From NCBI GenBank assembly GCA_023957475.1, contig JAMLHA010000002.1:32465-96464 (forward strand): 64,000 nt of DNA, given 5' to 3'. The notes under the pieces are model-generated. The model was given only the letters and a program-made list of their open reading frames with translations. It ran no database searches and was not told where the DNA came from. Positions 741-26,700 of this stretch are shown one piece after another. Each line of letters starts with the position of its first letter. Within the stretch, counting starts at the first letter, position 1. This stretch comes from Crocinitomicaceae bacterium. GTDB lineage: Bacteria; Bacteroidota; Bacteroidia; Flavobacteriales_D; Crocinitomicaceae. A program made the translations under genes and the position numbers.

Positions 741-2834
741 GTGAGTACATTTTTACAAACATCAATTGAATTTCTAAAGGGAGTTGGCCCACAACGAGCT
801 GAATTACTTAAAAGTGAGTTAGGAATTTATACGTTTGAGGATTTGTTGAATCATTTTCCTTTTCGTTATGTTGATCGCTCTCAGTATCATACTATTGCCG
901 AATCGCAATATTGCGATATGGCGATTCAACTAAAAGGCTATATCATCGAAATCAATGAATCTGGTGTTGGAAGAAAGCGTAAACTAACTGCCAAATTTCA
1001 AGACCAAACAGGTATGATTGAATTAATTTGGTTTCAAGGAATCAAATGGATATTACCAACCTTAAAAAAGGGTGTAGAAATGCAGGTTTATGGAAAACCC
1101 AAGCAATATGGACCTAAATGGAATATGCCGCACCCAGAAATTATTGAATTTTCGAAAGTGAAAGATGATGTTGGACTTCAACCAGTCTATTCTACAACAG
1201 AAAAGTTGACCAATTCAGGTTTGCACTCTAAAGGAATAGAGAAGCTTATAAAAACTTTGGTAGATCAGTTGCCTACTTTAAATGAATCGTTATCCAAACA
1301 GTTGTTAGTAAAACTCAATTTATTGGACAGAACAACCGCTTATAAGCAAATTCATCAACCAAAAACGGAAGAATTTGCTAATAGAGCAAGAAATAGATTC
1401 AAATTTGAAGAACTCTTTTATTTGCAGATGGAATTGTTGGTTAGAAAACAAATAAGTGTTCAAAAAACGAAGGGGTTTATTTTTGAAGAAGTAGGAGAGT
1501 TATTTAATGATTTTTACAAAAGAGGGCTCCCGTTTGATTTGACGGGTGCCCAGAAAAGAGTTATTAAGGAAATTCGTAAAGATTTTTTGAAAGGACACCA
1601 CATGAATCGTTTGCTGCAAGGAGATGTTGGGGCAGGCAAAACATTGGTGGCGCTATTGACAACGTTAATCGGTATTGGAAATAATTATCAAGCTGCAATT
1701 ATTGCGCCAACAGAAATATTGGCAATTCAACATTTTGAAACTATTAAGGAAATGTTGAAAGACTTTCCTGTTGAAGTTGCTTTGTTGACAGGTTCTACTA
1801 AAACAAAAGATCGCCGAGAATTGCATGAGAGATTATTGAATGGAGATATTCATTTGTTGATAGGAACACATGCATTGTTGGAAGATTCAGTACAATTTAA
1901 TAATTTAGGCATTGTTGTCATTGATGAACAGCACCGTTTTGGTGTTGCGCAACGAGCAAAAATGAGGTCAAAAAACACAACGCCACCTCACGTGTTAGTT
2001 ATGACAGCAACGCCAATTCCAAGAACGCTAGCAATGACATTTTATGGTGATTTAGATGTTTCTGTGATAGATGAACTGCCTCCTGGAAGAAAACCCATTA
2101 CAACGGTACATAAAAAGGAGCAAAACCGTTTGACTGTTTTTGGGTTTATACGCGAAGAAATTGAAAAAGGAAGGCAGATTTATATTGTTTATCCATTGAT
2201 TCATGAATCAGAGACATTGGATTTTAACAATCTAATGGATGGTTATGAAGCTATTTCTCGTTCTTTTCCGCTCCCTAAGTATAAAGTGAGTATGGTTCAT
2301 GGTAAAATGAAGCCAGAGGAGAAAGATTTTGAAATGCAACGATTTGTAAATGGAGAAACGCAAATAATGGTTGCAACTACAGTTATAGAAGTTGGAGTGA
2401 ATGTGCCAAATGCCTCTGTGATGATTATTGAGAGTGCTGAGCGTTTTGGATTGTCACAATTACATCAATTACGAGGGAGGGTTGGTAGAGGTGCAGAAAA
2501 GTCTTACTGCATTTTAATGACGGGAGATAAACTGTCGAAAGAAACAAAAAAACGATTGGATACCATGGTTCGAACAAATGATGGGTTTGAAATAGCTGAA
2601 GTTGATTTGCAATTGAGAGGCCCGGGAGATATTATGGGAACGCAACAAAGTGGTGAGTTGAACTTAAGGATTGCCGATTTAGCTAAAGATTCACAGACGG
2701 TTGTTTTAGCAAGAGATGAGGCAAGGGCGCTTTTGGCAGATGATCCATCTGTTGAAAAGCCCGAAAATTTTATTATAAGAGAATTGCTGACTAAAATATT
2801 AAAAGCAAAGCCTAATTGGGGGAGGATAGCATAA
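741..2834 (+). CDS. recG: ATP-dependent DNA helicase RecG
   Basis: LLQGDVGAGKT, IDEQHRFG, MTATPIPRTL, QLHQLRGRVGRG motifs. Confidence 0.97.
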   Translation: MSTFLQTSIEFLKGVGPQRAELLKSELGIYTFEDLLNHFPFRYVDRSQYHTIAESQYCDMAIQLKGYIIEINESGVGRKRKLTAKFQDQTGMIELIWFQGIKWILPTLKKGVEMQVYGKPKQYGPKWNMPHPEIIEFSKVKDDVGLQPVYSTTEKLTNSGLHSKGIEKLIKTLVDQLPTLNESLSKQLLVKLNLLDRTTAYKQIHQPKTEEFANRARNRFKFEELFYLQMELLVRKQISVQKTKGFIFEEVGELFNDFYKRGLPFDLTGAQKRVIKEIRKDFLKGHHMNRLLQGDVGAGKTLVALLTTLIGIGNNYQAAIIAPTEILAIQHFETIKEMLKDFPVEVALLTGSTKTKDRRELHERLLNGDIHLLIGTHALLEDSVQFNNLGIVVIDEQHRFGVAQRAKMRSKNTTPPHVLVMTATPIPRTLAMTFYGDLDVSVIDELPPGRKPITTVHKKEQNRLTVFGFIREEIEKGRQIYIVYPLIHESETLDFNNLMDGYEAISRSFPLPKYKVSMVHGKMKPEEKDFEMQRFVNGETQIMVATTVIEVGVNVPNASVMIIESAERFGLSQLHQLRGRVGRGAEKSYCILMTGDKLSKETKKRLDTMVRTNDGFEIAEVDLQLRGPGDIMGTQQSGELNLRIADLAKDSQTVVLARDEARALLADDPSVEKPENFIIRELLTKILKAKPNWGRIA

Positions 2835-2891
2835 AAAAAAGAAGCTACCCTTAATGGATAACTTCTTCTATGAATTTTAAATTTATATTGA

Positions 2892-3290
2892 TTACTTAGT
2901 AATATCTGCAGCAATTACAAATTTCAAATCGTTTTTAGTGCCAATCTGCAAGACATCAATCAATCGTTGAACTTCCATGTCGTAAGCTATACGTACAACA
3001 ACCGTATTATTTCCCAATTCAGTTGTTTTTGCTAAAAGTACAGATTCAATATCCTCAAAAGCAACAGGTTCTTTGTCAACAAAAAAGCCTTCATCTTTTG
3101 TTACAGATAATGTTAGATGCTTTTGAGATGTTTTTTCAGGAGCATCTGCCTTGGGCAAATCCATTTTTATTACGTTAGGGTTTGCCAAAGTTGAGATAAT
3201 CAAGAAAAAAAGCAACAAGAAGAACATGATGTCACTAAGAGCTTCTCTTGCTATTTCAATTTCGAATCGTTTATTTCGTCTTATCGCCAT
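2892..3290 (-). CDS. exbD: ExbD/TolR family biopolymer transport protein
   Basis: LSDIMFFLLLFFLI transmembrane motif; overlaps the end of the exbB-like gene. Confidence 0.88.
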   Translation of the reverse strand: MAIRRNKRFEIEIAREALSDIMFFLLLFFLIISTLANPNVIKMDLPKADAPEKTSQKHLTLSVTKDEGFFVDKEPVAFEDIESVLLAKTTELGNNTVVVRIAYDMEVQRLIDVLQIGTKNDLKFVIAADITK

Positions 3291-4023
3291 TTGGTCGTTG
3301 AATAATATTAATAAAATCCATATTCACTTTTTGAATATTTAAGACATATGCATCAATTGCACCATTAAGAAGGTGATAAGTTGTAAAGGCGATAATACCT
3401 ACAGCAAGACCAGCACCACTGGCGATCATTTTTTCGTACAAACCAGCAGAGATATTACCGATACTTACATTCTCTGTTACAGAGATACTATAGAAGATTT
3501 TAATAACCCCAGCAATTGTACCGATAAATCCAAGTGTTGGAGCAACCCCAGCAATCATACCAATACGGCCAAGATTTTTTTCCATTTTACCTATTTCGAT
3601 ATTTGTTGCTTTTTCCATGTTTGATTCAATTTCGGAAACTGGTCTTCCAATTGTTAAAATCCCTTCTTTAATCACATTTCCAAAGGCTGTTTTATCACGA
3701 GAAACAGTACTCAAAGCGCTCTCAACATTTCCTTGCACCAAACTATTCTGCATATCATTAAGCAAAGAGGCATCAAATTTTGTTGCTTTTCTAATGTAAA
3801 GAAACTTTTCAATTCCTACGGAAATTGTATAAAACAATAATAGAGCGATTGGAATAATCCAAACTCCTCCCATCATTAAGAAGTCTAAAGCTGAAATTTC
3901 TTTGACTTTATGAGTAGTTGTTTCAACAGCTGCCGTCGTAATTCCTGAATCTTCTTGAGAGAATGCAATTCCAATTGCAAATAGTGCAATGATTAAAGCT
4001 ACTGATTTAAATTTTATTTTCAT
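3271..4023 (-). CDS. exbB: MotA/TolQ/ExbB proton channel family protein
   Basis: APTLGFIGTIAG and MIASGAGL transmembrane motifs. Confidence 0.88.
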   Translation of the reverse strand: MKIKFKSVALIIALFAIGIAFSQEDSGITTAAVETTTHKVKEISALDFLMMGGVWIIPIALLLFYTISVGIEKFLYIRKATKFDASLLNDMQNSLVQGNVESALSTVSRDKTAFGNVIKEGILTIGRPVSEIESNMEKATNIEIGKMEKNLGRIGMIAGVAPTLGFIGTIAGVIKIFYSISVTENVSIGNISAGLYEKMIASGAGLAVGIIAFTTYHLLNGAIDAYVLNIQKVNMDFINIIQRPNGDKTK

Positions 4024-4158
4024 TTTTATAAATTTTTCACGTTAAAATTACACTATATTGAATTTAGAAATAAGATGGTAAAAATTATATTTCAAATATA
4101 GATTGTTAACAACTGAACCAATTGTATTAATAACGATTATTAATGCTTTTATTGTGTT

Positions 4159-4815
4159 TTATTTATTTCCTTTTTCGAAATCAGCTAAAAATTGCTCTAA
4201 CCCTTTATCTGTTAATGGATGATTGGCTAAAGCTTTGATTGCTTTTAATGGGCAAGTTGCCACATCAGCACCAATTTCTGCACAATGAATTATATGCATA
4301 GGGTAACGAACAGAAGCTGCTAAAATTTCTGTTTCGAACATGTAGTTATCAAAAATTACACGAATTTGCTGGATAAGGTCAATTCCATCATAAGAGATGT
4401 CATCTAAACGCCCTAAGAATGGAGATATATATGTTGCCCCAGCTTTTGCAGCCAATAAAGCTTGACCAGCAGAAAACACAAGTGTACAATTTGTTTTAAT
4501 TCCTTTTGAAGAAAAATATTTAATCGCTTTAATGCCTTCAGTAATCATAGGTATTTTGATTACTATATTTTTGTGAAGTTTAGCTAATTCCTCACCTTCC
4601 TTAATCATTTCTTTAAAGTCAGTGGAAATAACCTCTGCAGAAACGGGTCCGTCAACAATTTTACAAATTTTCACATAGTGGTTTAAAATGTTTTTCTTGC
4701 CCGTAATACCTTCTTTTGCCATTAATGAAGGGTTTGTGGTAACACCATCAAGAATACCTAAATCATAGGCTTCTTTAATTTCTTCTAAATTTGCTGTGTC
4801 GATAAAAAATTTCAT
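4159..4815 (-). CDS. fsa: Transaldolase / fructose-6-phosphate aldolase (TalC type)
   Basis: [33 protein letters not shown]. Confidence 0.93.
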
Positions 4816-4879
4816 GAGATTGTTTTTTTATGCAAAGATATAGAATGTTTAGTTTTTTTTAATTTTTTCGATAATTATC

Positions 4880-4903
4880 TACATATCGTAATATTGCGAT
4901 ATG
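4880..4903. promoter_or_regulatory. Palindromic operator upstream of arsR-family gene
   Basis: TACATATCGTAATATTGCGATATG; 22-bp near-perfect palindrome about 90 bp upstream of arsR; exact 24-nt copy at 19507-19530. Confidence 0.7.
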
Positions 4904-4992
4904 ACAAAAAAATGATAAAATATTTTTTTTAAGCGAATCTTTTTTATTAACTTCAATAAGAAATTTTAAACCTACCTTAAATTATTTACAAC

Positions 4993-5409
4993 ATGGGTGC
5001 AACAAAATACGAAGTATATCCAACAGAACTTATTGATGCTGTTGATTTATTAAAAGCAATTTCTCATCCTGCAAGACTACAAATTGTTCAGATGATTTCA
5101 GAAAGTAAAGAGAAAGAAGTTTCTACCAGTGAAATTTTGGAAGCAATTCAACTATCTCAATCCACAATATCTGTGCATTTGAAGGTATTGCACAATGCCG
5201 GTATTATTAATTCCAGAATGATGAAGCAGCGAAATAACAGAACAATTTTAAGCTATGGACTCAATATTGAAGCTTTGAAAATGCTAGAACAATGTCTTGA
5301 TTATCTTGTAATAAGGTTTGATGTAGATGCTAAAAAACTTCATGTATTGTATAATGTTTTTTCTCGATATAAAGAGAATACACCATTGAAAACTTTTTTT
5401 AGCACATAG
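4993..5409 (+). CDS. ArsR/SmtB family transcriptional regulator
   Basis: MGATK N-terminus, KAISHPARLQI, LSQSTISVHLKVL helix-turn-helix. Confidence 0.88.
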   Translation: MGATKYEVYPTELIDAVDLLKAISHPARLQIVQMISESKEKEVSTSEILEAIQLSQSTISVHLKVLHNAGIINSRMMKQRNNRTILSYGLNIEALKMLEQCLDYLVIRFDVDAKKLHVLYNVFSRYKENTPLKTFFST

Positions 5410-5497
5410 ATTCAGAGGTTAAATAAATGTTAATATTGTTAACTTTGGAACGATAATTGCGTCAATAAATTAAATTCACTTTCAAAATTAATGTAAT

Positions 5498-7042
5498 ATG
5501 AAATTTGTTTTATCTTTTATACTGGTTATTGTAGAGTCATTGTCATTTGGGCAAAAACTACGATTTAAAATTTTAGATCAAAAGGATACGATTGTCCATT
5601 TAGTGAAATACAATGGAGCAAAGCTTTTTTATGCTGATACAGCTGTAATAAAAGGAGGATATGTTGAATTTGACGGAGCAAAGCAAAGCCCTGGTATGTT
5701 GGGAGTTTTGTTTCCTGGTCAGCAACTTCTTGAGTTTATCTATAACAATGAAGAAGTTAATATCGAAGCAAAAGGTCCAAATTTTGCTGAAACAATGAAA
5801 ATTAAAAAGTCAGAGGAAAATAAAGTTTTCAATGAATATGTTAAATTCATTACCAGTAAAAGAGGAGAAGCTCAAAAGCTTGCTGATGAAAAAAGTAATT
5901 TAGATAAAAATAGTGATAAAGCAAAAGAATTACAAAACCAAATTGATGCAATCACGAAGGAAGTATATGCCTATCAAAATAATTTATCAAAAATCTATTC
6001 AAATATGTTGATTGGTAAAATGGTAAAGATGACCATTGATATGGAAATTCCAGAACCACCAGTTGATAGTAAGGGAAATATTATCGATTCTAATTTTAGG
6101 TATCACTATTTTAGAGATCATTATTTTGATAATATTGATTTTTCAGTAGATGGATTAGTGAATACACCTATTTTTGGAAATAAAATTGAATACTATTTTA
6201 GCAATAAGATGCTTATTCAGCATTGGGATACCATTTTGAAATATGCCTATAATTTAATTGACCCATTAAATCCAAAATCGAAAGCGTTTGAGTATATTGT
6301 TTCTTATGTTACAAGCACATTTGGTAAGAGCAATCAAATGGGAATGGATAAGGTTTATGTAATGATGGCTGATAAGTATTATTGTTCTAAAAATTCAGAA
6401 GGAAAATCACCGGCATATTGGATGACAAAGGATAAACTTGATGAACTTTGTGAAAAGATTGATGTGCAAAAACACCTTGTAATGGGAGTGAAAGCACCGA
6501 ATATCATCTTGCCAGACACATTGGATAAGCCTTGGGATCAGTTGAATTGGGTTAATTTACATAAATTAAAATCTGATTATACGATCTTGTATTTTTGGGA
6601 TCCAGAGTGTGGGCACTGTAAGAAAGTTACGCCTAAATTATCCGAACTGTATGACAAGAAGTTTAAAGCCAGAAACGTAGAGGTTTATGCTATTGGTAAA
6701 GCTTCTGGAGATGAATACAAAAAGTGGAAAGATTACATAAGGAATAATAAATTAAATTTTATCAATGTTGCTGTAACTGAAACTATTTTGAAAATAGGTA
6801 GAGAGGATGCACGTCAATTAATACCACGATTTACAACATTAGAATCGATGAATATTCATTTGACCTACGATATTTATTCAACACCGAGAATATTTGTATT
6901 GGATAAGGATAAAAACATCATCGCAAAGCAAATTTCTATTTCTCAACTTGAAAATATGATTGATCATATACAAGGAAAAGATGATTTGCCTAAGTTGTTT
7001 CCTCCAGATAAAGAGGAAGATGAGCACATGCAAAGTAAATAG
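5498..7042 (+). CDS. Exported thioredoxin-like (TlpA/redoxin) protein with DUF5106-like region
   Basis: Signal-peptide-like N-terminus; YFWDPECGHCKK CxxC; STPRIFVLDKDK. Confidence 0.8.
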   Translation: MKFVLSFILVIVESLSFGQKLRFKILDQKDTIVHLVKYNGAKLFYADTAVIKGGYVEFDGAKQSPGMLGVLFPGQQLLEFIYNNEEVNIEAKGPNFAETMKIKKSEENKVFNEYVKFITSKRGEAQKLADEKSNLDKNSDKAKELQNQIDAITKEVYAYQNNLSKIYSNMLIGKMVKMTIDMEIPEPPVDSKGNIIDSNFRYHYFRDHYFDNIDFSVDGLVNTPIFGNKIEYYFSNKMLIQHWDTILKYAYNLIDPLNPKSKAFEYIVSYVTSTFGKSNQMGMDKVYVMMADKYYCSKNSEGKSPAYWMTKDKLDELCEKIDVQKHLVMGVKAPNIILPDTLDKPWDQLNWVNLHKLKSDYTILYFWDPECGHCKKVTPKLSELYDKKFKARNVEVYAIGKASGDEYKKWKDYIRNNKLNFINVAVTETILKIGREDARQLIPRFTTLESMNIHLTYDIYSTPRIFVLDKDKNIIAKQISISQLENMIDHIQGKDDLPKLFPPDKEEDEHMQSK

Positions 7043-7119
7043 TCTGTCTTTTGGCAAATCGCAAGTGTTTTTTGGGGAGTTGTTTTTTGTAATGTAATTT
7101 TTAATAAGTTTACGCCACG

Positions 7120-7773
7120 ATGGATAGCTCATTACTTATACAGAAAATAACTTCTTTTGTTAAATCGCAATATTGCGATATCGCATCTGGACATGAGTGG
7201 TATCACATTAATCGTGTGAAAAACAATGCACTACACCTCCAATCAATCGAAGGCGGTAACAAAACCATCATCGAAATAGCCGCCTTATTGCATGACATAT
7301 CCGATTACAAATTCAATGGTGGAGACGAATACCTTGGTGGAGACGTATCCTACAACGCTGTTATAGATTGTGGTGGATCAGAAGAATTAGCAACATTGAT
7401 TAAAGAAATTGTAAATAGCATATCTTACAAAGGAGCCAACGTTGCCGATACAACCACTTCCTTAGAAGCTAAAATTGTGCAAGATGCCGACCGATTAGAT
7501 GCGCTTGGAGCAATTGGTATAGCAAGAACATTTGCTTATGGAGGCTCCAAAGGAAGTCCAATTTACGATCCAACTATTCATTACCAATTACACGATAGTT
7601 TTGATAAGTATAAAAATGCAAAATCAACTTCTATTAATCATTTTTATGAAAAATTATTACTTTTGGGAGATAAAATGCATACAAACTCAGCTAAGTTAAT
7701 AGCTAAAGAAAGAACCAATTTTATGAAAGAATTCCTTTCTCATTTTTATGAAGAGTGGGAGTGTAAGTATTAA
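7120..7773 (+). CDS. HD-domain phosphohydrolase (YedJ-like)
   Basis: GHEWYHINRV, ALLHDISD, QDADRLDALGAIGIAR. Confidence 0.88.
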   Translation: MDSSLLIQKITSFVKSQYCDIASGHEWYHINRVKNNALHLQSIEGGNKTIIEIAALLHDISDYKFNGGDEYLGGDVSYNAVIDCGGSEELATLIKEIVNSISYKGANVADTTTSLEAKIVQDADRLDALGAIGIARTFAYGGSKGSPIYDPTIHYQLHDSFDKYKNAKSTSINHFYEKLLLLGDKMHTNSAKLIAKERTNFMKEFLSHFYEEWECKY

Positions 7774-7775
7774 TT

Positions 7776-8726
7776 ATGTTGGATAGAGAACTAGCTTTGG
7801 GAATAGATATTGGCGGTACTAATACAGTATTTGCTATTGTAGATAGTGAAGGAAACATTCATTTCGAAAAATCGATTAAAACGAAAGATTTTAAGCAACC
7901 AGAGGATTTGGTGAATGAAATATACAACCAGTTACAAAAAAACTCATTGCTTCAAAATATTATTGGAATAGGTGTTGGAGCTCCCAATGGGAATCCTTTT
8001 AATGGAAATATTGAGTTTGCACCAAATTTACCTTGGAAAGGAATAATACCCTTGGCTTCAATCATTGAAAAAAAGTTTAATAAAAGCTGTAAAGTAGATA
8101 ATGATGCCAATATTGCTGCTTTAGGAGAAATGAAATTTGGAGTGGCCAGAGGGTTAAAAAATTTCGTTACCATTACATTAGGTACAGGATTGGGAAGTGG
8201 AATAGTTGTTGATGGAAGAGTGGTATATGGAGAAAATGGCTTTGCAGGTGAGTACGGACATATTCGAGTAGAGAAGGAGGGACGAGTATGCGGTTGTGGT
8301 AGAAAAGGGTGCTTAGAAACCTATGTTTCTGCAACAGGTGTAGTGAGAAGTATTCGTGAGCATGACTCAAAAAACCAAGCAAGTTCTATCTTACAAACAA
8401 TTGCTCATCCAACTAGTTTAGATGTTGTAAATGCAGCTAAGGATGGCGATAAGTTTGCAACAGAAATATTGGATTTCACAGCAAAAACATTAGGAGAATC
8501 TTTAGCAGATTTTATGTGTTTTTCCAACCCCAAAGCTTTTGTATTGTTTGGAGGTTTGGCAAAAATTGGAACAAGTTTCGCCGAAAATGTAGAAAAATAC
8601 ATGAATGATGCGGCTTTAAATATTTATAAAGGCAAAGCAAAAGTTTTAGTTTCTGATTTACACGATAAAAATGTAGCGCTTTTAGGAGCTGCGGCCTTGG
8701 TGTTTCACGAACTGAAATATTCTTAG
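7776..8726 (+). CDS. ROK family sugar kinase (glucokinase-like)
   Basis: GIDIGGT, NDANIAALGE, TLGTGLGSG, GEYGH, CGCGRKGCLE. Confidence 0.92.
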   Translation: MLDRELALGIDIGGTNTVFAIVDSEGNIHFEKSIKTKDFKQPEDLVNEIYNQLQKNSLLQNIIGIGVGAPNGNPFNGNIEFAPNLPWKGIIPLASIIEKKFNKSCKVDNDANIAALGEMKFGVARGLKNFVTITLGTGLGSGIVVDGRVVYGENGFAGEYGHIRVEKEGRVCGCGRKGCLETYVSATGVVRSIREHDSKNQASSILQTIAHPTSLDVVNAAKDGDKFATEILDFTAKTLGESLADFMCFSNPKAFVLFGGLAKIGTSFAENVEKYMNDAALNIYKGKAKVLVSDLHDKNVALLGAAALVFHELKYS

Positions 8727-10963: not shown

Positions 10964-10998
10964 GTCAGGTGGTTGTAAGTCAGTGTTTATAAGAGATT

Positions 10999-11043
10999 GA
11001 GTTCTATTGTTCAGAAAACGAAAAATAGAACTCTTTTCTTTTT
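10999..11043 (+). terminator. Intrinsic terminator in the array leader (ends the + strand pre-crRNA)
   Basis: GAGTTCTATT/AATAGAACTC 10-bp stem followed by TTTTCTTTTTTT on the + strand only. Confidence 0.7.
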
Positions 11044-11072
11044 TTAGAACTGTAATTGTACAAAAATCAAAT

Positions 11073-11411: not shown

Positions 11412-11418
11412 AAACGTG

Positions 11419-12309: not shown

Positions 12310-12312
12310 TGT

Positions 12313-12339: not shown

Positions 12340-12370
12340 TACCGGTATTAAATGAAAAGGTTACGTTTTC

Positions 12371-12799: not shown

Positions 12800-12804
12800 A
12801 AGTC

Positions 12805-13104: not shown

Positions 13105-13107
13105 TAA

Positions 13108-17400: not shown

Positions 17401-17495
17401 AGTTTCAATTATTGTATGTAAATGATCAGCTTCATTTAAGAATTTGAATATAATAAGAAATTTTTAAAAAATGTGTTTAGTATCAAAATAATTTC

Positions 17496-17503
17496 TATAT
17501 TTG
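17496..17503 (+). promoter_or_regulatory. Bacteroidota -7 promoter box for tracrRNA
   Basis: TATATTTG matches TAnnTTTG just upstream of the anti-repeat. Confidence 0.7.
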
Positions 17504-17505
17504 AA

Positions 17506-17588
17506 TATTGAAAGCAAATCACAATAAGGATTATTCCGTTGTGAAAACATTTGGGTTGCCTCTTGTCCACAATCAGGAGGTTTTTTTA
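17506..17588 (+). ncRNA. tracrRNA
   Basis: TATTGAAAGCAAATCACAA is the reverse complement of repeat nt 2-20; followed by TAAGGATTATTCCGTTGTGAAAAC nexus-like segment and a CCTCTTG/CAGGAGG hairpin with T7 tract. Confidence 0.9.
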
Positions 17589-17631
17589 TGCCCAAATGTT
17601 TCAAAATCCATGAAAATAGAAGTAGTTCAGC

Positions 17632-17665
17632 AAAAAAAACGAGGCATTAATTTATCTGCCTCGTT
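17632..17665 (-). terminator. Intrinsic terminator of the DEAD-box helicase gene
   Basis: AACGAGGCA/TGCCTCGTT 9-bp stem with T tract on the - strand. Confidence 0.8.
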
Positions 17666-17688
17666 CTTAGTTATAAATTTCTGTTTGT

Positions 17689-18888
17689 TCAATCAACAAA
17701 CGTAAAAGCAGTTCCTGTTTTTCCTGCTCGTCCAGTTCTTCCTATTCGGTGAATGTATGTATCAAAATCATTTGGAACTTGGTAGTTTACCACCAACGAA
17801 ACATTGTTTACGTCAATTCCACGAGCCGCAACATCGGTTGCTACCAATATTCGGATTGTTCCCTTTTTAAACTTATCAAGCGCGTTGACTCTATAATTCT
17901 GCGATTTATTTCCATGAATTTGATCCGATTTTATACCCGATTCATTGAGTTTTTTAGCTAAACGATTTGCCAAATGTTTGGTTTCTGTAAATAAAATAAC
18001 TTTGTCGTAATCGGTGTTTGAAAGAAGGTTTAACAGCATTTTGAATTTATCTTGTCCTTGTGGTACTTTGATAATATCTTGTTCCACATTCTTCGAGCTT
18101 TGATCTCCAGAATGTATCTCAACAATTAAAGGATTGCTAACTATTTCATTAATAATGGATTGTTGTTTTGGATCTTTGGTTGCAGAAAACAATAACGTTT
18201 GTTTACGTTGTTTCATCCCATTAATCAATTCTCGAATATCGCGAATAAACCCCATATCGAGCATTTTGTCAAATTCATCAAGTACCAATACTTCAAAACG
18301 ACTCATTTTTAAATACCCACGATTTTTTAAATCCAATAAGCGCCCTGGAGTCCCAATGATCAAATCGAAATAATTCGATAAACTTCGAATATCCTTTTCA
18401 ACATTTGTTCCACCAATATAGCATGCCGCTCTTAACTTTAAATTTTCGGCCAATTTTTTAAATTCATCATAAACTTGTAACGCAAGTTCTCTTGTTGGTA
18501 CAATGATTATCGATTGAAATTTAGCATCGTTATTGCGCATTAAATTTTCAAGTATAGGTATCAAAAACGCACCTGTTTTACCGGTTCCGGTGTTGGCAAT
18601 TCCAATTAAATTCGATCCATTTACCAATTGATCAAATGTTTTGTCTTGTATTTCAGTAGGAGTGATAAACCCCATTTTACGAATGTTTTCCTTTAGTTGT
18701 TGATGCAAGTTCAAGTCATCAAATCGTGTTTCTACTTGAGGAGCTCTTTCTAATAAAACCTCTGCTTTTTGTATGAGCAAATTGGGATTTAGCGTTGATT
18801 TCTTTTTATTTTTCTTAGGTTGACTAAAAATAATGGTATTATTTCCTTGTTTATTAACGGGTTTGTTTGCTTTTCTATTTCGTTGCAT
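17689..18888 (-). CDS. DEAD-box RNA helicase (DEFD variant)
   Basis: Q motif GFITPTEIQ, ANTGTGKT, PTRELA, DEFD, SAT, ARGID, HRIGRTGR. Confidence 0.93.
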   Translation of the reverse strand: MQRNRKANKPVNKQGNNTIIFSQPKKNKKKSTLNPNLLIQKAEVLLERAPQVETRFDDLNLHQQLKENIRKMGFITPTEIQDKTFDQLVNGSNLIGIANTGTGKTGAFLIPILENLMRNNDAKFQSIIIVPTRELALQVYDEFKKLAENLKLRAACYIGGTNVEKDIRSLSNYFDLIIGTPGRLLDLKNRGYLKMSRFEVLVLDEFDKMLDMGFIRDIRELINGMKQRKQTLLFSATKDPKQQSIINEIVSNPLIVEIHSGDQSSKNVEQDIIKVPQGQDKFKMLLNLLSNTDYDKVILFTETKHLANRLAKKLNESGIKSDQIHGNKSQNYRVNALDKFKKGTIRILVATDVAARGIDVNNVSLVVNYQVPNDFDTYIHRIGRTGRAGKTGTAFTFVD

Positions 18889-19227
18889 ATTTTTTGTTTT
18901 CTATCTCTTTAAGATAATTCATTTATTGATAGCAAGGGATTTTCCCAAACTATATCTATGCAGAAAACTGAATTTATTCAGCATCTGAGTGAACGATAAT
19001 TCATTGTATCGTTTTGTATAAAATTCCGAAAATCTGTTGTGAAAAAGAGAAAAGAGTTTTTCTTCTTTTGTTAGAAACGAATAGAAGGACACGTTCAAAT
19101 TCGTTTGTTTTCATGTCAGGTGGAGTGCCTGATATATATTCTTAATTTCAATAACAACTTCCGGCAGGTATTTCTTTGCTGGTTTATTTGTTCATCAATA
19201 GTTGCCTACCAATAAAGCTTGTTTCTG

Positions 19228-19235
19228 CAAAGATA
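19228..19235 (-). promoter_or_regulatory. Putative -7 box for the helicase gene
   Basis: TATCTTTG(CA) on the - strand, about 340 nt upstream of the ATG. Confidence 0.6.
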
Positions 19236-19280
19236 AGCATTTTCTTCACGCTAAAATTAAATAAAGTTAAAATAAATGGT

Positions 19281-19288
19281 TACTTTTG
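19281..19288 (+). promoter_or_regulatory. Putative -7 box for the cold-shock-domain gene
   Basis: TACTTTTG, about 285 nt upstream of the ATG. Confidence 0.5.
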
Positions 19289-19506
19289 TAGCTATAAAGT
19301 TAGATTCTGTTGAAGTAGGTGTTGTAATATAGTTTAGTCAAAGCGGTTCCGCTTATCTTTCCTTTTTTATATCATTTTAATTTGAGATTTCTTTTATTGT
19401 TTCTATTTATTTAGAACAATTGTTTGTTTTATCTCATCGACAGAATGTATTTATCAATGAATGGCAAAACAGATAAGACATTTTTCTACTTTTTAAATAC
19501 GCAATT

Positions 19507-19530
19507 TACATATCGTAATATTGCGATATG
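19507..19530. promoter_or_regulatory. Second exact copy of the arsR-upstream palindrome
   Basis: TACATATCGTAATATTGCGATATG identical to 4880-4903, 42 bp upstream of the cold-shock-domain gene. Confidence 0.7.
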
Positions 19531-19572
19531 GCTTTTTAGTACAAATATTAAATTATTAATACACAAATAATT

Positions 19573-20007
19573 ATGGCGGAAACATTTAACAAGAAAGAAC
19601 GAGAAAAGAAAAGAGAGCAACGCAAAAAAGAAAAGCAATCCAAAAAAGAAAATAGAAAAGAACATGCTTCTTCTGGAGGGTGGGAAAGTATGATGGCTTA
19701 TGTGGATGAAAATGGATTACTTCAAGACACACCGCCAGATCCGTCTGCAAAAAAGAAAATCAACGCCAAATCGATTGAAATAGGGATTCCCAGAAGAGAG
19801 AAAGAAGAATTTGACCCAGTATTAAGAGGTTTTATCAATTATTTTGATTCAGCAAAAGGTTATGGATTCATAAAAACAGAAGACGATGAAAATTTCTTTG
19901 TACATCAAAACAATGTTTCTGGAATAGCCGAAAAAGGTAAAAAGGTTCGATTTGAAAAGGAGAAAAGCGCAAAAGGGTGGGTTGCAATCAAAGTTGTAAT
20001 CGAGTAG
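19573..20007 (+). CDS. Cold-shock domain protein with basic N-terminal extension
   Basis: KGYGFI (RNP1) and FFVH (RNP2); Lys/Glu-rich N-terminus typical of Bacteroidota. Confidence 0.88.
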   Translation: MAETFNKKEREKKREQRKKEKQSKKENRKEHASSGGWESMMAYVDENGLLQDTPPDPSAKKKINAKSIEIGIPRREKEEFDPVLRGFINYFDSAKGYGFIKTEDDENFFVHQNNVSGIAEKGKKVRFEKEKSAKGWVAIKVVIE

Positions 20008-20438: not shown

Positions 20439-20723
20439 TTATTCGATTACAGCGCTTATTCCTCTGTCTAACAAGGCAGTACACATTGGTTCTAAATGCT
20501 CGTAATTACCTCGTTTCACCTGACATTTGCCATTGTGATGAATAATCAATGTACACTGCTCAGCTTGCAACGTATTGTGCTCGCAAACTTTTATAAGTGA
20601 TTCAATAACAAAATCAAATGTATTCACATCATCGTTGTAAACCACTAAATCGTATTTGTCCACAAGTTGCTCTATTACAGAAACCTCTTCTTGTGTTTGC
20701 GTATTGTTTTTAATTACCTCCAT
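20439..20723 (-). CDS. clpS: ATP-dependent Clp protease adaptor ClpS
   Basis: LVVYNDDVNTFDFVIESL, QAEQCTLIIHHNGKC; ATG at 20723 preferred. Confidence 0.9.
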   Translation of the reverse strand: MEVIKNNTQTQEEVSVIEQLVDKYDLVVYNDDVNTFDFVIESLIKVCEHNTLQAEQCTLIIHHNGKCQVKRGNYEHLEPMCTALLDRGISAVIE

Positions 20724-23700
20724 TTTTCTCTTCATTTTTTCCTTCTGAAAGGTTAAAACCAAATAGGGAAGTTGTGTTTTTTATTTCTTCCATATCTGCC
20801 GCTTGTACATCAAAAATACGAACTTCAATTGTTTCATCTACTAATTTGTATTCCTTCCTGTACGGCAATTTGATCAACCAATCATTGAAGTCACCCGGAA
20901 TTGTACGTTGATTTATTGAAATGGTTACTTTAGTTTGATAATTTTTTAAATATTCTTCTCTATTCAAGTGGATAGTGTCCATTTCATCTACAAACGTTGC
21001 AATTCTCGGCAAGCGTGTGTCAGCTGGATAATAATCAGATTTAATGCGTTTATCGTTTTTGTCATAATAGAAATTACCCTTTACATTGTAACGATTAATT
21101 TCATCTTTCGGATAACTATCAAATGTTTTCTTCGAAGCAAATTGTACAAACGAAGTGGCATCTACTACACTTTTTACCAACGTAAAGGTTTCATTAAATA
21201 CCGTTTTTTCTTCTATAATGTCTGGACGATCTTCTTCTACTTGTGTTTTAACTACCGTTTCTTGTGATCCTTCTTTATAGACCGGAACACCTTGACGGAT
21301 TAATTCCAACGCTTTAGCAATCGTAATACGTTCATTTTGGTAATACGCAACAACAAATGCTTCTTTAACTGCTGTATTTCGAATGCGTGTTTGCATGTCA
21401 ATAGCACTATTTAAACTGCTGAAAAGCCCAACGTTGTAACGTATTTGGCCATTGCCCAAACGGAAAGTATATAATGGTTTCAAATTGTGTAAACGTTCAT
21501 TACTTGCAGGTTTGTTAAATACACCTATTTGAACCGTAAAATAAAGTTGATTGTAATCGTATTGCTCTATCGCCTCTGCTTTGGCTGCTCCTGGTGCTTT
21601 GTTGTACGCAAATTCAGAAACAGGCTTTAAGGTTTTTGTCGTGTCCTCAATACCTAAATGAGAAGCAATGTTCGATGCTACTTCCAATTGAATTTCATTG
21701 GTGCTTTGACCAATACATTCTCCTCTTGCTTCCATGTTGCGTGCTTCACCAAATGGAATGCGCTTCCCATCACAGTAAGCAACTACAAAGGCATCGGCAT
21801 AACCAAATTGACGTATTTTTTCGCGAGCATCTACCACTGATACGGCATTGTTGAAGAATCCTGCCATGTAGCGAATAACGTTTGTATTGGCTATTTTCTC
21901 TCCTGTTACAGGTGTAAATTCTTTAAAATGTCCTTCTGGCAATGGTTTTGCAAATGCTCCAACTTGTACACGATAAACCAAGCCTTTAGGTGATAAAACA
22001 TCTACCGGAATCATGCTTGTTTCAGAAACGATATGTGCATTTGCATTGTAATCGATACCATTTACTGAAATCGGAACCAATGCAGCTGCAATCAATGATT
22101 TCTTGATTGGGTTTATACCTCTTGCAACTAAGTTTTGATATTTCATAGCTTCAGTTGAATCTGATGGTAAATACGTGTTTGCTTCTTTATTTAATTGGGC
22201 TATTTCGGTCTCCAATTGTTTCAAAGATAGGGAGATATTTGAAATAGTATCCAATAGATTTGATTTTTGTTGCATTAAATCTACTCGTTCTTGTTGCGAA
22301 GCAGTCATTTCTTGCTGGCGAATAGCAGTCAATTTTTGCTGTTGTTTCAATAAATTTTCGCTGTTAACAGTATGTTTATTAATTAATTCATCTTGCTTGG
22401 CAATTACTGTTGCATATTTTTCATAGTTTTCTGTTGAGGCAATTTGTCGCTCTTCGTTGTAAGATAAATTTACAGTGTTTTCACTAAGACTTGTTGGTTG
22501 TTTGATTGGTTGATAAAGTGCAAGCTGCTTGTCGATGAGTTCTATTTCTTTCTGCAATAAGCTTTGTTTTTCTTTGATCGCTCCAACTTCTACACCAACT
22601 TGCTCTTTTTCTTTTTTGTTCTTGGTGGTAGCATATTGGTAATCTTTCTCCAATTTTAATGTTTCTAATTCTCCAATCTCAATGGAATAGCGCTTTTTCT
22701 TTTCTGCTAATGATTCTTGATCATAAATTCTTGCCGCAGTGTGCTCCGAAACAAATGATTGATCTTCTTCTAACTCAGTAACCTGCTTTAAATAGTTTAA
22801 ATGTGCTTCGTTTTTGTCTTGCAGTTGGCTTAAAATAAGCTCTTTTCCAGCAGTTGTTTTTTCTTTGAGCAACTTAGCTTCTAAATCATTCTTTTCGGCC
22901 TCGTAAACGCTTGTATTGTTATTTGTAAGGTTTTTTTGTTGCGATTGTTGCTGCAATGTTTCAATTTGTTGTTGCGTTGTTTCGTTGGCTGCTATTAAAT
23001 GGTCAATTTCCTTTTCTGCTTGTTGATTTTTAAGAACAAGCATTTCCTTTTCAAGTTCTTTACGTTCTTTTTTAGAAATGTCATCGTTTAACATTTTAGC
23101 TTCTATCTCTTGTTGCTTTGTTGTTGGCACCACATCGGAGGGAGTAGAAGAGGTGTTTTCTATATTTTGCGCTACAATTGCTTGTTCTATGCTTGCTTTT
23201 TGTTGTTCCAACGCTTGAATACGGTTAGATATGCGTTGCGTTTCTTGATTCACAGCATCTTTGTACAATTCTTTCTCTGTTTTTGGTGCTTTGGCTAAAA
23301 CTTGGTTGATTTGTTTTTGGTAATCTTTCAAACGTTGAACAGTTTGATTGATTGCTTCTACAGTTGTTGGTTCTTCATTGAAATCACTTTCGATGTTGCC
23401 TGAATAAGACGCTTGCAATTCCTTGGTAACAACGGTAGGAGTTTTAGCAGGTTTTACCTGTTCAGGTGTGTCCTTTGGTTGTTTGTTTTCTTGTGTTTGA
23501 TTTGCATTTGTTTGTTGAGCTATAGCAGCTTGTTCAAGCACCGTTTTTTGTTTTTCCAATTCTTGAATACGTGTATTTACACGTTGTTGCTCTTGATTGA
23601 TAACAGCTACATAATCTGCACGTTCATTGTTTGAAATAGTTTCAAGTACGTCATTGTTTTGTTGTTTGTAGTTTTCTAAACGTTGTATCGTAGTTGCAAT

Positions 23701-26700
23701 TTCTTCAATTGTAGAAGGAGTTGCTGTAAAATCAGTTTTTAAATCACCGCTATATAATTTTTGAAGATCCTCTAAAATAATTGTTGGGGTCTTTTTTTCT
23801 TGTTCAATTGGTTTGACTACTTCATTTGTTGTCTGTTGGGTGTTGGTAGATGTCGTGTTGTTTTCGTTAGCATTTTTTTGGTTGTTTTGAGCAATGATTT
23901 CTTTTTGTTTTTGCAATTCAACTTTTTCATTGTTCACGAGCATCGCAACTTCATCTATTTTATTCTCAATAGCTACAATTTTAGGATCAATGCTTTTATT
24001 TTCAGGATTTTTAACCTTGATCGCTTCTAAAGCTTGTTTTTGCTTGGTTAAGTCTTTGTTTAATTGATTCAGAAGGTTGATGTTATCTTGCGCATTGTCA
24101 GATTCTTGCAATGTTACCATTGCTTTTTGGTAGGCATTGTCAGCACCTTGACCAAGTTCGTCAATTTGATTTTGTATTTGCTGCTGTTTTGCGATTAATT
24201 CATCTGTTTTAGCCAGTTTTTCTATTTCTTTAACTCGTGCAGCAATGGTTGTTTTTAGTTCATTGATTTTTTTGTCAATCAATTGATTTTTTGCTTGTAA
24301 TACTTTTGTTTCACTTGTTTTTGCAAGCTGTTCTTTGGTTTGTTTTATTTCTTCCAATAATTTATCAATCAAATCATGGTCGTTGCTGTTCAATTGCTTT
24401 AATTTTTCAATTTCTGTTAATTGATCATCTTCTTGTATTTGATTTTGAAGAGTAGAATAAGTTGGAGCGATAGAACTAATGATTGATTCAATGTTTTGCT
24501 TGGATATTTCCTTGTTTGCATTTGAAGTCAAGGAATCTTTCAAAATCTTTTGGTCTTGATTGAGTTCAACCAATAGTTTTTCAATTTTAGTTATTTGCTG
24601 ATTTGTGGCATCAGTGTTTTCTTTTTGTTTTAATTCACTCAAATACTCTTTTAATTCTGCTTGTTTTTGAGTGTTTAATTCCAACAATTGTTTTTGACGC
24701 TCGTAATTGCTTATCTCGTCATTTGAATAGATTTCTACTGACTGTTCGTTATATTGCGATATTGCGATATCGGCATAATCTTTGCTCTCATTAGAGGTAG
24801 AATTCTTTTCGCGTAACTCTGCTAATGCATTTTCAGAATATGCACGTAATGTTTCAATTTTGCTGTTATTGGTGTTGTATTTTGCTTGAATGATTTCATC
24901 ATTGGAAATAGGTTTCCCTTTGTATGCATCAATTTCGTTTGCAACGGCTAAATGTTTTTCGTTGGTGTTTCTTTTTTCTGCTTGTTCGGCAATCAACGTT
25001 TGCACTTTTGTTAAAGCGCTTTTAGCATCGTTTAATTCATAGTTTTTGGCATCTATTTCATCTTGAATAGGTTGCTTTTGTTTAGGTTTTGCAGCATCAC
25101 GTTGTTGTTCTAATTTAGCAATGTCATCCTCAATACGCTTAACGGTTTCGATGTTTGTTGCTTCAACAGACTTTAGTCGTGTTAGTTCTTTTTGAATACC
25201 TAACTGCTCTTGCACCAATTTTTCAGAAGAAGTTACGTTGTTTCCTTTTAAAAATGATTGAATCAAATCTTTGTTTTCGGTTAATGTAGCGATAGCTTCT
25301 TTGTTTTGATTATTCGCTATTGCAGTTGAAAACTGATCGATGACTGTTTTTACTTCTCGTAAATTAACGTGGGTTCCGTTTGAATTTGCTTGTGTAAGTT
25401 GATTGCTGATTTGTTCAATTTCATCAATTTTGTCAAACAATTGATCTCTTTGCTCATACAATTCGGCAATGTTTTCTAAAATGGCTTCTTTTCGCTGTAA
25501 ATTATCTGCATTATCGGCTTCTTTTATGAGGTTTTTAATCTGTTCATCTGTTTGATTGATTTGATTGAGAATGGCTAAAACCACACCATTTGTAGAAGTT
25601 TCTAATTTGCGATCAGATTGTTTTGCATTGCTGGCTTCTTGATAATTTTCTTTAAGTTGTTGACTGACTTCATTTGGCGTTTTAGTTCCCATTCCAAGCT
25701 CTGAAATGATTTTTTGGAGTTCAACTTGAGCATGCAACTCATTTTCATCAAATTGATCTTCGTTGATATTCAAATTCGCTCTTTCTTTCAGTACTTGAGA
25801 AACAATGCTTTGTGCATCGTCAAATCGTTCGTCAAATAAATTCGTGATTTTAATTTGTTCCTGACCATCTACAATCAAATGTTCCATTCTCTGTTTTAAT
25901 GGACGCAATTCTTTTAAAAATGGCACATCAATATCCATTTTAAATGTTTCATTAGAACCAGCTATTGTAATGGTGTACTGATATTTTCCGCCTTTTGGAA
26001 AAACAATTAAATAACTGTCGTCATCCAATGAATTGAAATATCCAATGAATTTACCACTGACTTTATCAGTTACTTCACAGGTCATTTTAGAATTGGCAGG
26101 CAACACCGTTGACGAAAATCCTCCTTTGATAATTGCCAGTTGAATAGGAATGCGCTCAACACCTACTTTGTAAACAACCACTTTGCCATCTTGTGATTGA
26201 CGAGTTGATGAAAAATAGGCGTTTTTATTCTCTTTATCAACAACATATAGGATATCGTCATCTGGTGAACTGATGGCAAAATCAACATTTGTTACATCAG
26301 AATATGTGTTATCGCTATATTGCGATTTGAAGATATCGTATCCTCCCATTGAATTGTGCCCTTTGGAAGAAAAGTACAGTTCTCTACCATTTGGATGCAT
26401 GAATGGATAATCTTCATCGTAAGGTGTATTGATAACATCGGGTAATCGTTGTGGTAAACCGTATTTTCCTCCAGGAAGTCTTTTTGCTACGTAAATATCA
26501 AGGTTGTCTCGATCACCATAACTTGCAAAATAAACGTTTTCCATATTGGGTAAAATACAGACTATCGGTTTGTGATCGTATTTTTTATCGTTTTTTGATT
26601 GAAAATCTACCGCCGTAATTATACTTCCACCCATATCGCTCAAATCATACAGACGGAAAAAATCTTGTTGTTTAATTTCTGTTTTTTTACGTACGATGAT

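Follow-up and report, generated by a model that had tools for sequence, protein, structure and literature searches.

A palindromic box matching an ArsR footprint clusters around genes for sensor-less ArsR/SmtB-type paralogues in Crocinitomicaceae

Introduction

ArArsR of Arsenicibacter rosenii SM-1 was described in mLife in 2025 as a 'new type' of ArsR that responds to As(III) and MAs(III) (PMC11868830). DNase I footprinting and EMSA revealed that ArArsR protects a region 19-46 bp ahead of its gene and that this region contains ATCGTAATATTGCGAT, and mutagenesis assigned the As(III) site to Cys41, Cys80 and Cys82 (PMC11868830).

The autorepressors SmtB, CzrA, CadC, HlyU and NolR, with their 12-2-12 inverted-repeat operators, resemble the system analysed here in being dimeric winged-helix proteins with a long AT-rich inverted repeat at their own promoter, but they use only a handful of promoter operators. 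HlyU and NolR have no ligand, showing that a metal site is dispensable for function in this family. For SmtB/CzrA-type repressors, we know of no description of tens of operator copies that are clustered around paralogues or placed in coding sequence.

Other DNA-binding proteins are accompanied by regional groups of sites. RTP of Bacillus subtilis is a small autoregulated winged-helix dimer whose gene lies amid about ten composite Ter sites; these sites have a polarity and are arranged at a single terminus in two groups that oppose each other. The parS/ParB, matS/MatP and ram/RacA systems use short palindromes in tens of copies or fewer, which are regional, tolerated in genes and independent of position and orientation. 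Here, we analysed a 64-kb window, the whole stretch of DNA presented above, from a Crocinitomicaceae genome (G000), and compared its recurrent palindrome and ArsR-like gene with these systems.

Results

Box copies in the window

The strict pattern ATCG-NN-ATAT-NN-CGAT was found at six sites in the window compared to 0.00 in shuffles. With up to two mismatches and both strands included, there were 14 strand-matches compared to 0.11 in shuffles, and besides the six strict sites the window also has one degenerate overlapping pair (Table 1). The first-pass annotation had reported a recurring 16-bp palindrome, and all of its positions and sequences were verified, far above what shuffles yield. The diverged box in the 1451-aa ORF was absent from its list. 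Around the strict core, the full box reads roughly ATATCGYCAT-ATCGCAAT-ATTGCGAT-ATGRCGATAT. The extended palindromes are 32-42 bp long with half-sites phased by 8 bp, which is enough room for more than one dimer, and the offset of the overlapping pair equals this 8-bp periodicity of the extended consensus.

Table 1. Boxes and the ArsR-like gene in the 64-kb window
Feature	Position	Strand	Context
Perfect box ATCGCAATATTGCGAT	902-917	.	within recG (741-2834), read ESQYCD
Own-promoter box, 24-mer with core ATCGTAATATTGCGAT at 4885-4900	4880-4903	.	92 bp before the ArsR-like start codon, in the spacer separating the ArsR-like gene (4993-5409, +) from the divergent transaldolase gene (4159-4815, -)
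Paralogue A, 138-aa sensor-less ArsR/SmtB-type winged-helix protein	4993..5409	+	presumed class-A box binder
Perfect box ATCGCAATATTGCGAT	7164-7179	.	44 nt into the HD-phosphohydrolase gene (7120-7773), read KSQYCD
Second identical 24-mer, core ATCGTAATATTGCGAT at 19512-19527	19507-19530	.	45 bp before the 144-aa cold-shock-domain gene (19573-20007); divergent DEAD-box helicase gene ~620 bp away
Two overlapping degenerate 14/16 copies, 8 bp offset	24745-24768	.	within the 2149-aa gene (20710-27159, -)
15/16 box ATCGCTATATTGCGAT	26311-26326	.	within the 2149-aa gene (20710-27159, -), read KSQYSD
Seventh, diverged box ATCGCTATATGTCGAT	43919-43934	.	within a 1451-aa ORF, 39 kb from the regulator gene

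Identity of the box

The core shared by the two 24-mers is an exact match to the published ArArsR footprint. The box also lies 20-66 bp before the genes of canonical short ArsRs (~108 aa) in Mucilaginibacter, Sphingobacterium, Pricia and other Bacteroidota genera. These short homologues carry Cys41/43/80/82 and a C-terminal CC, and they head operons of the arsM/arsC/ACR3 type. For the longer paralogues (~138 aa), a TATCG-N8-CGATA box with at most two mismatches was found 83-161 bp upstream of 21 of the 30 genes examined in eight genomes. That the 16-mer is the predicted site of the regulator encoded at 4993-5409, as the first-pass annotation had put forward, is thus strongly supported by the ArArsR footprint, by the upstream placement of the box throughout the family and by the recognition-helix covariation described below. 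We conclude that the palindrome is probably the core of the site of an ArsR/SmtB-type winged-helix dimer and was multiplied together with sensor-less paralogues.

A palindrome of this kind could instead be a hairpin terminator acting as RNA or DNA, or a REP/MITE-like element that a transposase has dispersed. As palindromes the sites are perfect, with RNA folding energies of -7 to -14 kcal/mol, and in one related genome (G009) about 10 of 31 boxes lie between convergent genes, many of them 5-20 bp after stop codons. Dispersed palindromes that are mostly intergenic, as in G009, and often between convergent genes also recall REP/REPIN-RAYT systems. Comparison of the two arms, however, gave 255 matches against 246 +/- 10 in permutations; arm complementarity therefore equals the permutation expectation, with no covariation beyond the consensus, a result that fits recognition by a protein and would be unexpected for a hairpin. 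Conservation from Cytophagales to Flavobacteriales extends to the exact box sequence, beyond pairing ability, and no U-tract follows the intergenic copies of the window. The copies in recG and in the HD gene arose without a change in length, and the sole Y1/RAYT-type transposase gene, on contig C32, has no box within 1.5 kb. In contrast to REP/REPIN-RAYT elements, the boxes have a predicted dedicated winged-helix binder rather than a transposase, and their coding copies are free of indels. Lacking arm covariation, indels and a link to RAYT, the hairpin and REP-like readings were rejected as very improbable.

The ArsR-like protein and its relation to ArArsR

The protein encoded at 4993-5409 belongs to the ArsR/SmtB winged-helix family. 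It matched Pfam HTH_5 (PF01022) with 50.5 bits (cut-off 22) and the NCBIfam ArsR/SmtB metalloregulator model NF033788 with 59.1 (cut-off 55). Its AF2 model (pLDDT 83.5) has the order alpha1-alpha2-alpha3-alphaR-beta1-beta2-alpha5, with a low-confidence region in the C-terminal tail, and the top PDB matches in Foldseek were HlyU, CzrA, SrnR, SmtB and CadC (probability 1.00), with HlyU, CzrA and SrnR the best. In common with ArArsR, it has the same DNA site upstream of its own gene, the ArsR/SmtB fold, an invariant N-terminal MGATK and a recognition helix of the form Q-S-T-x-S-x-H-L-K. Its probable kinship to ArArsR is traced by way of the Cys-bearing homologues.

The differences concern sensing and context. 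Cys41, Cys80 and Cys82, the As(III) ligands of ArArsR, are absent from the aligned positions of the protein, which has a single Cys, at position 101; it also has 30 additional residues and a C-terminal tail that is new. The gene lies outside an ars operon, being followed by genes for a thioredoxin-like DUF4369/AhpC-TSA protein, an HD hydrolase and a ROK kinase, and a search of the whole genome for ACR3 found none. Its box is ~100 bp before the start codon as opposed to ~30 bp for ArArsR, and the genome has 26 boxes, some of them intragenic, as opposed to one or two. The protein presumably binds the window copies constitutively, without release by arsenite.

Distribution across genomes and covariation with the recognition helix

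Box counts among genomes were bimodal and tracked the long paralogues, which were present in all eight box-rich genomes (G000, 26 boxes; G001, 25; G003, 36; G005, 28; G007, 29; G009, 50; G021, 12; G023, 20) and confined to these genomes with 12-50 boxes. Most other Crocinitomicaceae had 0-2 boxes, and a reversed-pattern control in the same comparison gave 0-1. Taishania pollutisoli CZZ-1, a cultured relative, has 36 boxes and six long paralogues.

Covariation was seen between the residue that precedes the invariant His in the recognition helix and the first inner base of each half-site. Q or V pairs with C or T in 26 of 36 half-sites, E with G in three of four paralogues, and R with A in both paralogues that have it; the R paralogue of G000 is located among boxes of the corresponding class. 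The exceptions are L014 of G023, which has E with CAAT, and several Q/V paralogues with mixed half-sites. Because the inner bases of orthologous boxes differ between species, they are no strict specificity code.

On the basis of the first inner base of each half-site, boxes were assigned to class A (C or T), class B (G) or class C (A). The 3.14-Mb G000 genome contains 26 real boxes compared to 0 for each of five composition-matched control patterns. It has three paralogues and three box classes, and each class is clustered within tens of kb around one paralogue in its own neighbourhood, and the class-A cluster, with the gene at 4993-5409 in its midst, is the one seen in the window. Of the 26 boxes, 18 lie less than 60 kb from a paralogue on the same contig, in 8.8% of the genome (binomial p ~1e-13). 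Three further high-quality class-A boxes are on contig C8, which has no known paralogue. G009 has six paralogues, and 29 of its 31 class-A boxes lie no more than 51 kb from one of them; several of the G009 paralogues have the same box class. The paralogue gene is roughly central in each cluster, and no GC-skew switch was found within the cluster-bearing contigs, giving no link to origin or terminus.

Positions are partly conserved. At orthologous loci of three species (L062-L064), three box positions relative to the paralogue are retained (about -3660, -120 and +2150), and the last of these lies between convergent genes. The persistence of boxes between convergent genes argues against a simple promoter regulon. 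The flanking genes have no common theme, including mutS2, rpsP, dapD, pcm, a cyclophilin and a photolyase in G009, and recG, tal and a CRISPR-Cas9 locus in G000.

Copies in coding sequence

Coding boxes in the genome numbered 17, compared to 0.4 in protein-preserving codon shuffles (~40-fold). In recG, ten orthologues read L-P/A-x-V/L-D (LPQVD) at the position of the box, without an indel, and SQYCD is not kept; the box was found only in G000. By this alignment, the recG box is a product of clustered substitutions that changed the protein in this lineage. In the HD-gene orthologue of T. pollutisoli, the corresponding codons contain a 14/16 copy, and no copy is present in more distant species. 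The asnB genes of G000, G001 and G009 share a box position to the codon but differ in its inner bases. The codon-shuffled null and the orthologue comparison had both been proposed in the first-pass annotation, and both came out in favour of selection at the DNA level; judged from these comparisons, the coding copies are under such selection.

The same results bear on whether a motif of the HIP1 or DUS kind, iterated genome-wide and shaping protein sequence, or a conserved SQYxD peptide with a coincidentally palindromic coding sequence, could account for the boxes. The common S-Q-Y frame noted at the outset does hold for the four window coding copies, but it fails as a rule, since the perfect coding copies in asnB and in a DUF4350 gene on contig C8 read R-N-I-A-I. 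The peptide is not conserved in orthologues, and codon shuffling that preserves the protein removes the motif. Boxes of the HIP1/DUS kind would number hundreds to thousands throughout a genome, as opposed to the small and regionally confined set found here. These explanations, of which the first had been offered in the first-pass annotation, are refuted by the low regional count, the RNIAI frame, the orthologues and the codon shuffle, and we give them practically no chance of being correct.

The extra boxes might also be decoys with little or no effect on their neighbours, either titrating the regulator or arising as nearly neutral by-products near its operator. Consistent with this, the quality of class-A boxes drops with distance from the gene, from perfect or C-to-T only at less than 15 kb to 1-3 mismatches at 20-39 kb, and individual sites turn over between species, as in recG. 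However, coding copies are perfect despite their amino-acid cost and far exceed the codon-shuffled null, and positions in asnB and around the L062-L064 paralogue are kept in three species. Furthermore, a specific 16-mer was written without an indel, for which we know of no mutational mechanism. We therefore consider decoys improbable.

Discussion

The DNA site and the protein family are already known. What appears to be undescribed is a duplicated, sensor-less metalloid repressor whose recognition helix has diversified along with its box, and around each gene copy of which tens of selected sites, with predicted binding, are found. In most Bacteroidota, the box is found only once or twice, at the arsR promoter of an ars operon whose ArsR senses arsenite. 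Within some of the Crocinitomicaceae, G000 among them, this regulator probably gave rise to the longer ~138-aa paralogues without the sensing cysteines. Each would still stand behind its own box, which implies autorepression, while the box itself has been multiplied to tens of copies, each class clustered near its paralogue gene. The extra copies could act locally, most plausibly, though at slightly less than even odds, as repressor or roadblock sites whose occupancy would be set by how near they lie to the regulator gene; architectural or titrating roles share the remaining odds. Repression of the classical promoter type fails to account for copies between convergent genes or deep inside genes, such as those at +664 in asnB, +844 in the DUF4350 gene, and +833 and +2391 in the 2149-aa gene.

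These same copies are what a structural role would lead one to expect. The sensor-less paralogues would then organise the chromosome locally instead of regulating genes, with each one bridging or coating the boxes of its class over 50-120 kb centred on its gene, and the boxes would be loop anchors, insulators or domain boundaries for which promoter position is irrelevant. The boxes are indeed indifferent to promoters, occurring in coding sequence as well as in the spacers of tandem and of convergent genes, and the flanking genes in G009 and G000 are functionally unrelated. The paralogue gene is roughly in mid-cluster, G000 has three classes in three neighbourhoods, and the phased half-sites of the extended palindromes leave space for a further dimer. 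On the other hand, oligomerisation beyond the family dimer is without support, the tail that might be considered is modelled at low confidence, and the sharing of one class by several G009 paralogues means that neighbourhoods are not separated by specificity. Clustering is equally expected from a low-abundance repressor acting near its own gene, and the link to origin or terminus is absent. Overall, we regard such organisers as unlikely. It is similarly unlikely that the paralogues form an undescribed, self-centred neighbourhood-marking system, in which each would occupy its box class within about 50 kb, in spacers and genes alike, insulating or folding the stretch as a roadblock, boundary or loop anchor, and which would have been gained all-or-none in several Crocinitomicaceae lineages.

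Known systems with regional sites resemble the clusters in part. As with RTP/Ter, a small winged-helix protein is encoded amid a cluster of its predicted sites, but the boxes here are palindromes, and their clusters occur at several places in a genome, none of them coinciding with a GC-skew switch. As with parS, matS and ram, there are few to tens of palindromic sites, regionally confined, coding or not. Unlike them, the predicted binder is of the ArsR type, and there are several regions per genome (three in G000, six in G009), each centred on a paralogue; the cluster contigs and GC skew revealed no single region tied to origin or terminus with ParB, MatP or RacA as its binder. Canonical parS is present in two perfect copies on contig C29 and a single ParB is encoded on C23, both away from the clusters.

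Some of the boxes overwrite conserved housekeeping proteins (recG, asnB, the HD hydrolase), a clean natural case of DNA-level selection prevailing over protein sequence. That predicted binding sites are confined to the surroundings of the gene for their regulator is relevant to target search by low-abundance DNA-binding proteins, and the clusters bear on local chromosome structuring in bacteria without H-NS or Fis. As T. pollutisoli CZZ-1 is in culture, the question is directly testable. The G000 genome itself is from a wastewater bacterium and is Taishania-like.

Copies of the palindrome in the window and genome

All motif positions claimed by the first-pass annotation were borne out when the window sequence was re-read, and the generalised core ATCG-NN-ATAT-NN-CGAT (the strict box) revealed an extra copy that the annotation had missed (see the table below). 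The window holds 6 strict copies compared to 0.00 in shuffles. The whole genome (G000; 3.14 Mb, 34% G+C, 33 contigs) contains 4 copies of the perfect 16-mer and 26 of the strict core, and five control patterns of matched composition gave 0. TATCG-N8-CGATA occurs 22 times in G000, compared to 1-4 times for every other spacing from 2 to 14. The inner bases of the half-sites define classes A, B and C. The 11 class-A-like copies in the genome (at most two mismatches) all lie at 15-59 kb of contig C12, which carries the window (C12:32465-96464), or at 38-60 kb of contig C8. The symmetry reaches ~36 bp via the flanks with an 8-bp phase (ATATCGYCAT, ATCGCAAT, ATTGCGAT and ATGRCGATAT). Boxes were also seen as pairs 40-45 bp apart: a class C and a class A box at C12:31052-31107, just left of the window, precede a 139-aa gene without a Pfam match and then a cytochrome c gene; a further two, both class C, lie at C5:9020-9080 within a single 309-aa ORF.

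Coordinates of box copies, box classes and the CRISPR-Cas locus (window positions unless a contig is named)
Feature	Position	Strand	Detail
ATCGCAATATTGCGAT, perfect	902-917 and 7164-7179		window sequence
ATCGTAATATTGCGAT, within identical 24-mers	4885-4900 and 19512-19527		window sequence
15/16 copy	26311-26326		window sequence; inside 2149-aa gene 20710-27159 (-)
Overlapping degenerate copy pair	24745-24768		window sequence; inside 2149-aa gene 20710-27159 (-)
Extra strict copy	43919-43934		generalised core
Class A boxes	contigs C12 and C8		inner bases C/T-AAT...ATT-G/A
Class B boxes	C1 at 163-274 kb, plus C15 and C22		GGAAT/GGGAT
Class C boxes	C5, start of C8, C12:31052		ACAT/AAAT
CRISPR array	8771-10966		~25 repeats, unusually long 87-bp period
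cas1	11419-12309	-
Two RhuM-family fragments	12371-13104	-	wedged before cas9
cas9	13108-17400	-	RuvC_III, HNH, bridge helix

The palindrome is an ArsR box

The 16-mer is an ArsR box of the ArArsR type. For ArArsR, the As(III)-responsive ArsR of Arsenicibacter rosenii (Cytophagales), DNase I footprinting and EMSA showed a protected stretch 19-46 bp before its own start codon that contains exactly ATCGTAATATTGCGAT, and Cys41, Cys80 and Cys82 are needed to sense As(III) (PMC11868830). This paper was the sole relevant match in a full-text literature search for the core sequence. No literature on palindromes of this genus was found. Homologues of ~108 aa with the ArArsR cysteine pattern were found in Mucilaginibacter, Sphingobacterium, Pricia, Saprospiraceae and several Flavobacteriales genera. 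These genes have this box at 20-66 bp upstream; in some cases another copy lies just 3' of the gene. They are the first genes of operons with ArsM-like, ArsC (LMW-PTP), ArsI-like and ACR3-like genes.

In the window, the gene at 4993-5409 starts 92 bp downstream of the 4885 box and encodes a 138-aa ArsR/SmtB protein, whose AlphaFold model (pLDDT 83.5) has HlyU, CzrA, SrnR, SmtB and CadC as its best PDB matches. The protein is without the ArArsR-pattern cysteines and its C-terminal tail is longer. A thioredoxin-like gene, an HD hydrolase and a ROK kinase follow; ACR3 was sought in the G000 genome and not found.

The single 138-aa protein as a query against metagenome and genome contigs found no relatives; these were found with a 7-sequence alignment as the query. 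Relatives matching over most of the 138-aa length (long paralogues) are present in 2-7 copies in G000, G001, G003 (Taishania pollutisoli CZZ-1), G005 (UBA5422), G007 and G009 (a Crocinitomicaceae MAG), all of one GTDB genus, and also occur in G021 and G023, both outside it. The strict boxes number 26, 25, 36, 28, 29 and 50 in these six genomes, respectively, 12 in G021 and 20 in G023. The five remaining genomes of the genus have 0, 0, 1, 0 and 1, and most of 80 sampled family members have 0-2 (reversed-pattern control, 0-1). Box counts are bimodal across genomes, with the high state found in genera g9, g14 and g35 too. Of 30 long paralogues, 21 have a box with two mismatches or fewer at 83-161 bp 5' of the start codon. 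This placement, together with the match to the ArArsR footprint, supports the earlier suggestion that the box is the binding site of an ArsR-like regulator. No conserved partner gene was found next to the long paralogues, most of which are solitary and many of which have a convergent neighbour. A 138-aa long-form paralogue (455-868) was also observed on L070, a 3.8-kb contig binned as an Ignavibacteriaceae MAG, with 56% identity to the first sequence of the query alignment, a G009 paralogue. Upstream of it, the 8-bp unit TTACGATA is repeated in tandem at least four times, giving box half-sites in a phased series. The contig's assignment may reflect mis-binning or horizontal transfer.

The recognition-helix residue preceding the invariant His and the first inner base in each half-site covary. 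Glutamine, found at this position in all canonical short ArsRs, is the ancestral state. Q and V are paired with C or T in 26/36 half-sites, E with G in 3/4 paralogues, and R with A in 2/2. The three paralogues of G000 have V, E and R, and the boxes in their neighbourhoods are of class A, B and C, respectively; the R paralogue, at the edge of contig C5, is surrounded by class-C boxes.

Boxes cluster around the paralogue genes

In G000, 18 of the 26 boxes are found no more than 60 kb from a paralogue on their contig, an area comprising 8.8% of the genome (p ~1e-13), and most of the others are on contigs whose adjacency is not established. Similarly, 29 of 31 class-A boxes in G009 have one of six paralogues no more than 51 kb away, in neighbourhoods that make up 17.5% of the genome at most. 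In both genomes the paralogue gene is near the middle of the cluster. The pattern recurs in G003, with 4 boxes within 10 kb of its C8 paralogue and 5 within 13 kb of its C12 paralogue. At one orthologous paralogue, boxes at about -3660 and -120 are kept in G009, G005 and G003, and one at about +2150, between convergent genes, in G009 and G003; the inner bases of these position-conserved boxes vary by species.

In G009, 27/31 boxes are intergenic. About ten lie between convergent genes, often 5-20 bp past stop codons, and the remainder in divergent or tandem spacers. The genes flanking the G009 boxes are unrelated housekeeping genes (mutS2, rpsP, dapD, pcm, cyclophilin, GNAT and photolyase). 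All five intergenic class-A copies in G000 are in divergent spacers, and at least six copies are intragenic (folK (HPPK), recG, the HD gene, asnB, a DUF4350 gene and the 2149-aa gene). The asymmetric C-to-T variant of the box showed no consistent orientation relative to the downstream gene or to paralogue position.

In this lineage, a sensor-less, duplicated derivative of the arsenic repressor has retained a box at its own promoter, implying that it represses itself, and tens of further boxes have been gained under selection close to each copy of the gene. That the boxes are placed without regard to promoters, and persist within genes as well as between convergent ones, argues against an ordinary regulon. 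Of three possible roles for the extra boxes, the likeliest is that a scarce protein, acting near where it is made, uses them for local repression or roadblocking. The main rival to this explanation is that the extra boxes have an architectural or boundary role, and titration of the protein is a lesser one. The presence of several clusters per genome argues against a single Ter-like or centromere-like region. A parS, origin or terminus reading was rejected: the two perfect copies of canonical parS are on C29, the only ParB is on C23 and dnaA is on C1, and no GC-skew switch was found within the cluster-bearing contigs.

No end overlaps joining C5, C8 and C12 were found. On the left, paralogue C (C5:93-497) is separated from the end of C5 by 92 bp, and C8 has a class-C box (C8:55-70) 55 bp from its left end. 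The promoter of paralogue C may have been split by an assembly break, and a C8-left/C5-left join, resting only on this box and this paralogue, is plausible. At C8:42763-44600 (L005, 12764-14600), a DDE_Tnp_1_3 transposase is present in two ORFs, probably through a frameshift, with a class-A box (C8:43990) adjoining; nearby, upstream of pth, the minus strand appears to carry the 3' end of a tmRNA gene.

Coding copies are selected at the DNA level

Coding copies of the box are selected at the DNA level. When synonymous codons were permuted inside each gene, as the first-pass annotation had proposed, 0.4 strict boxes (maximum 2) were obtained compared to 17 observed, and 0.1 class A coding copies compared to 4. 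G000 RecG reads A-E-S-Q-Y-C-D-M-A, compared to A-E-L-P-Q-V-D-T-A in ten orthologues, with no indel; the recG box arose by clustered substitutions that altered 4 or 5 residues in a variable segment. The HD gene orthologue of T. pollutisoli has a 14/16 version at identical codons. In asnB, TATCG-N8-CGATA is at identical codons in G000, G001 and G009, with differing inner bases and amino acids, and there is no box in the other eight orthologues. The S-Q-Y reading reported earlier is indeed a common frame in the window but is not general, since the asnB and DUF4350 copies read R-N-I-A-I. As the frame is not general and the recG orthologues are without SQY, a HIP1/DUS-like iterated motif shaping protein sequence, the other alternative offered at first reading, was rejected. 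The giant minus-strand genes at 20710-27159 (2149 aa) and 27827-32464 (1545 aa) gave only one weak PD40 repeat as their Pfam signal.

Hairpin and REP-like readings

Outside the consensus, the box arms showed 255 complementary matches compared to 246 +/- 10 for randomly paired arms. RNA hairpins of the boxes are of moderate stability only, and no U-tract follows the intergenic copies in the window. A hairpin or terminator was rejected on the moderate folding energies and the lack of arm covariation. A REP/RAYT link was likewise rejected, since the sole Y1 transposase gene in G000 has no box nearby. Collectively, these results favour a protein that recognises the half-sites independently, rather than a hairpin or REP-like element. 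Rfam and tRNA scans of window 1-30000 detected a tRNA-Arg only.

Metagenome contigs and the CRISPR-Cas locus

Near-identical DNA is present in sludge and wastewater metagenomes of several studies. For window 600-20000, contigs were compared from four public runs (sludge, wastewater and one metatranscriptome), and the long pieces are identical to the window; the strains are too similar for these contigs to inform on strain-level conservation of the boxes. The RNA contigs, which give no transcript ends or levels, map to exbBD, the thioredoxin-like gene, cas9, the DEAD-box gene and 19496-19885, and none of them covers the ArsR-like gene. In 3/4 runs, the contigs have 24 extra nt inserted after 17688, where the DEAD-box helicase gene has its stop codon. 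In two runs the bin 17422-18068 had 10-30 times the depth of neighbouring bins, and hence contains sequence that is repeated or widely shared. A type II CRISPR-Cas locus (8771-17400) lies inside the class-A cluster, and a metatranscriptome contig of depth 110 matches 9316-9340 with many mismatches.
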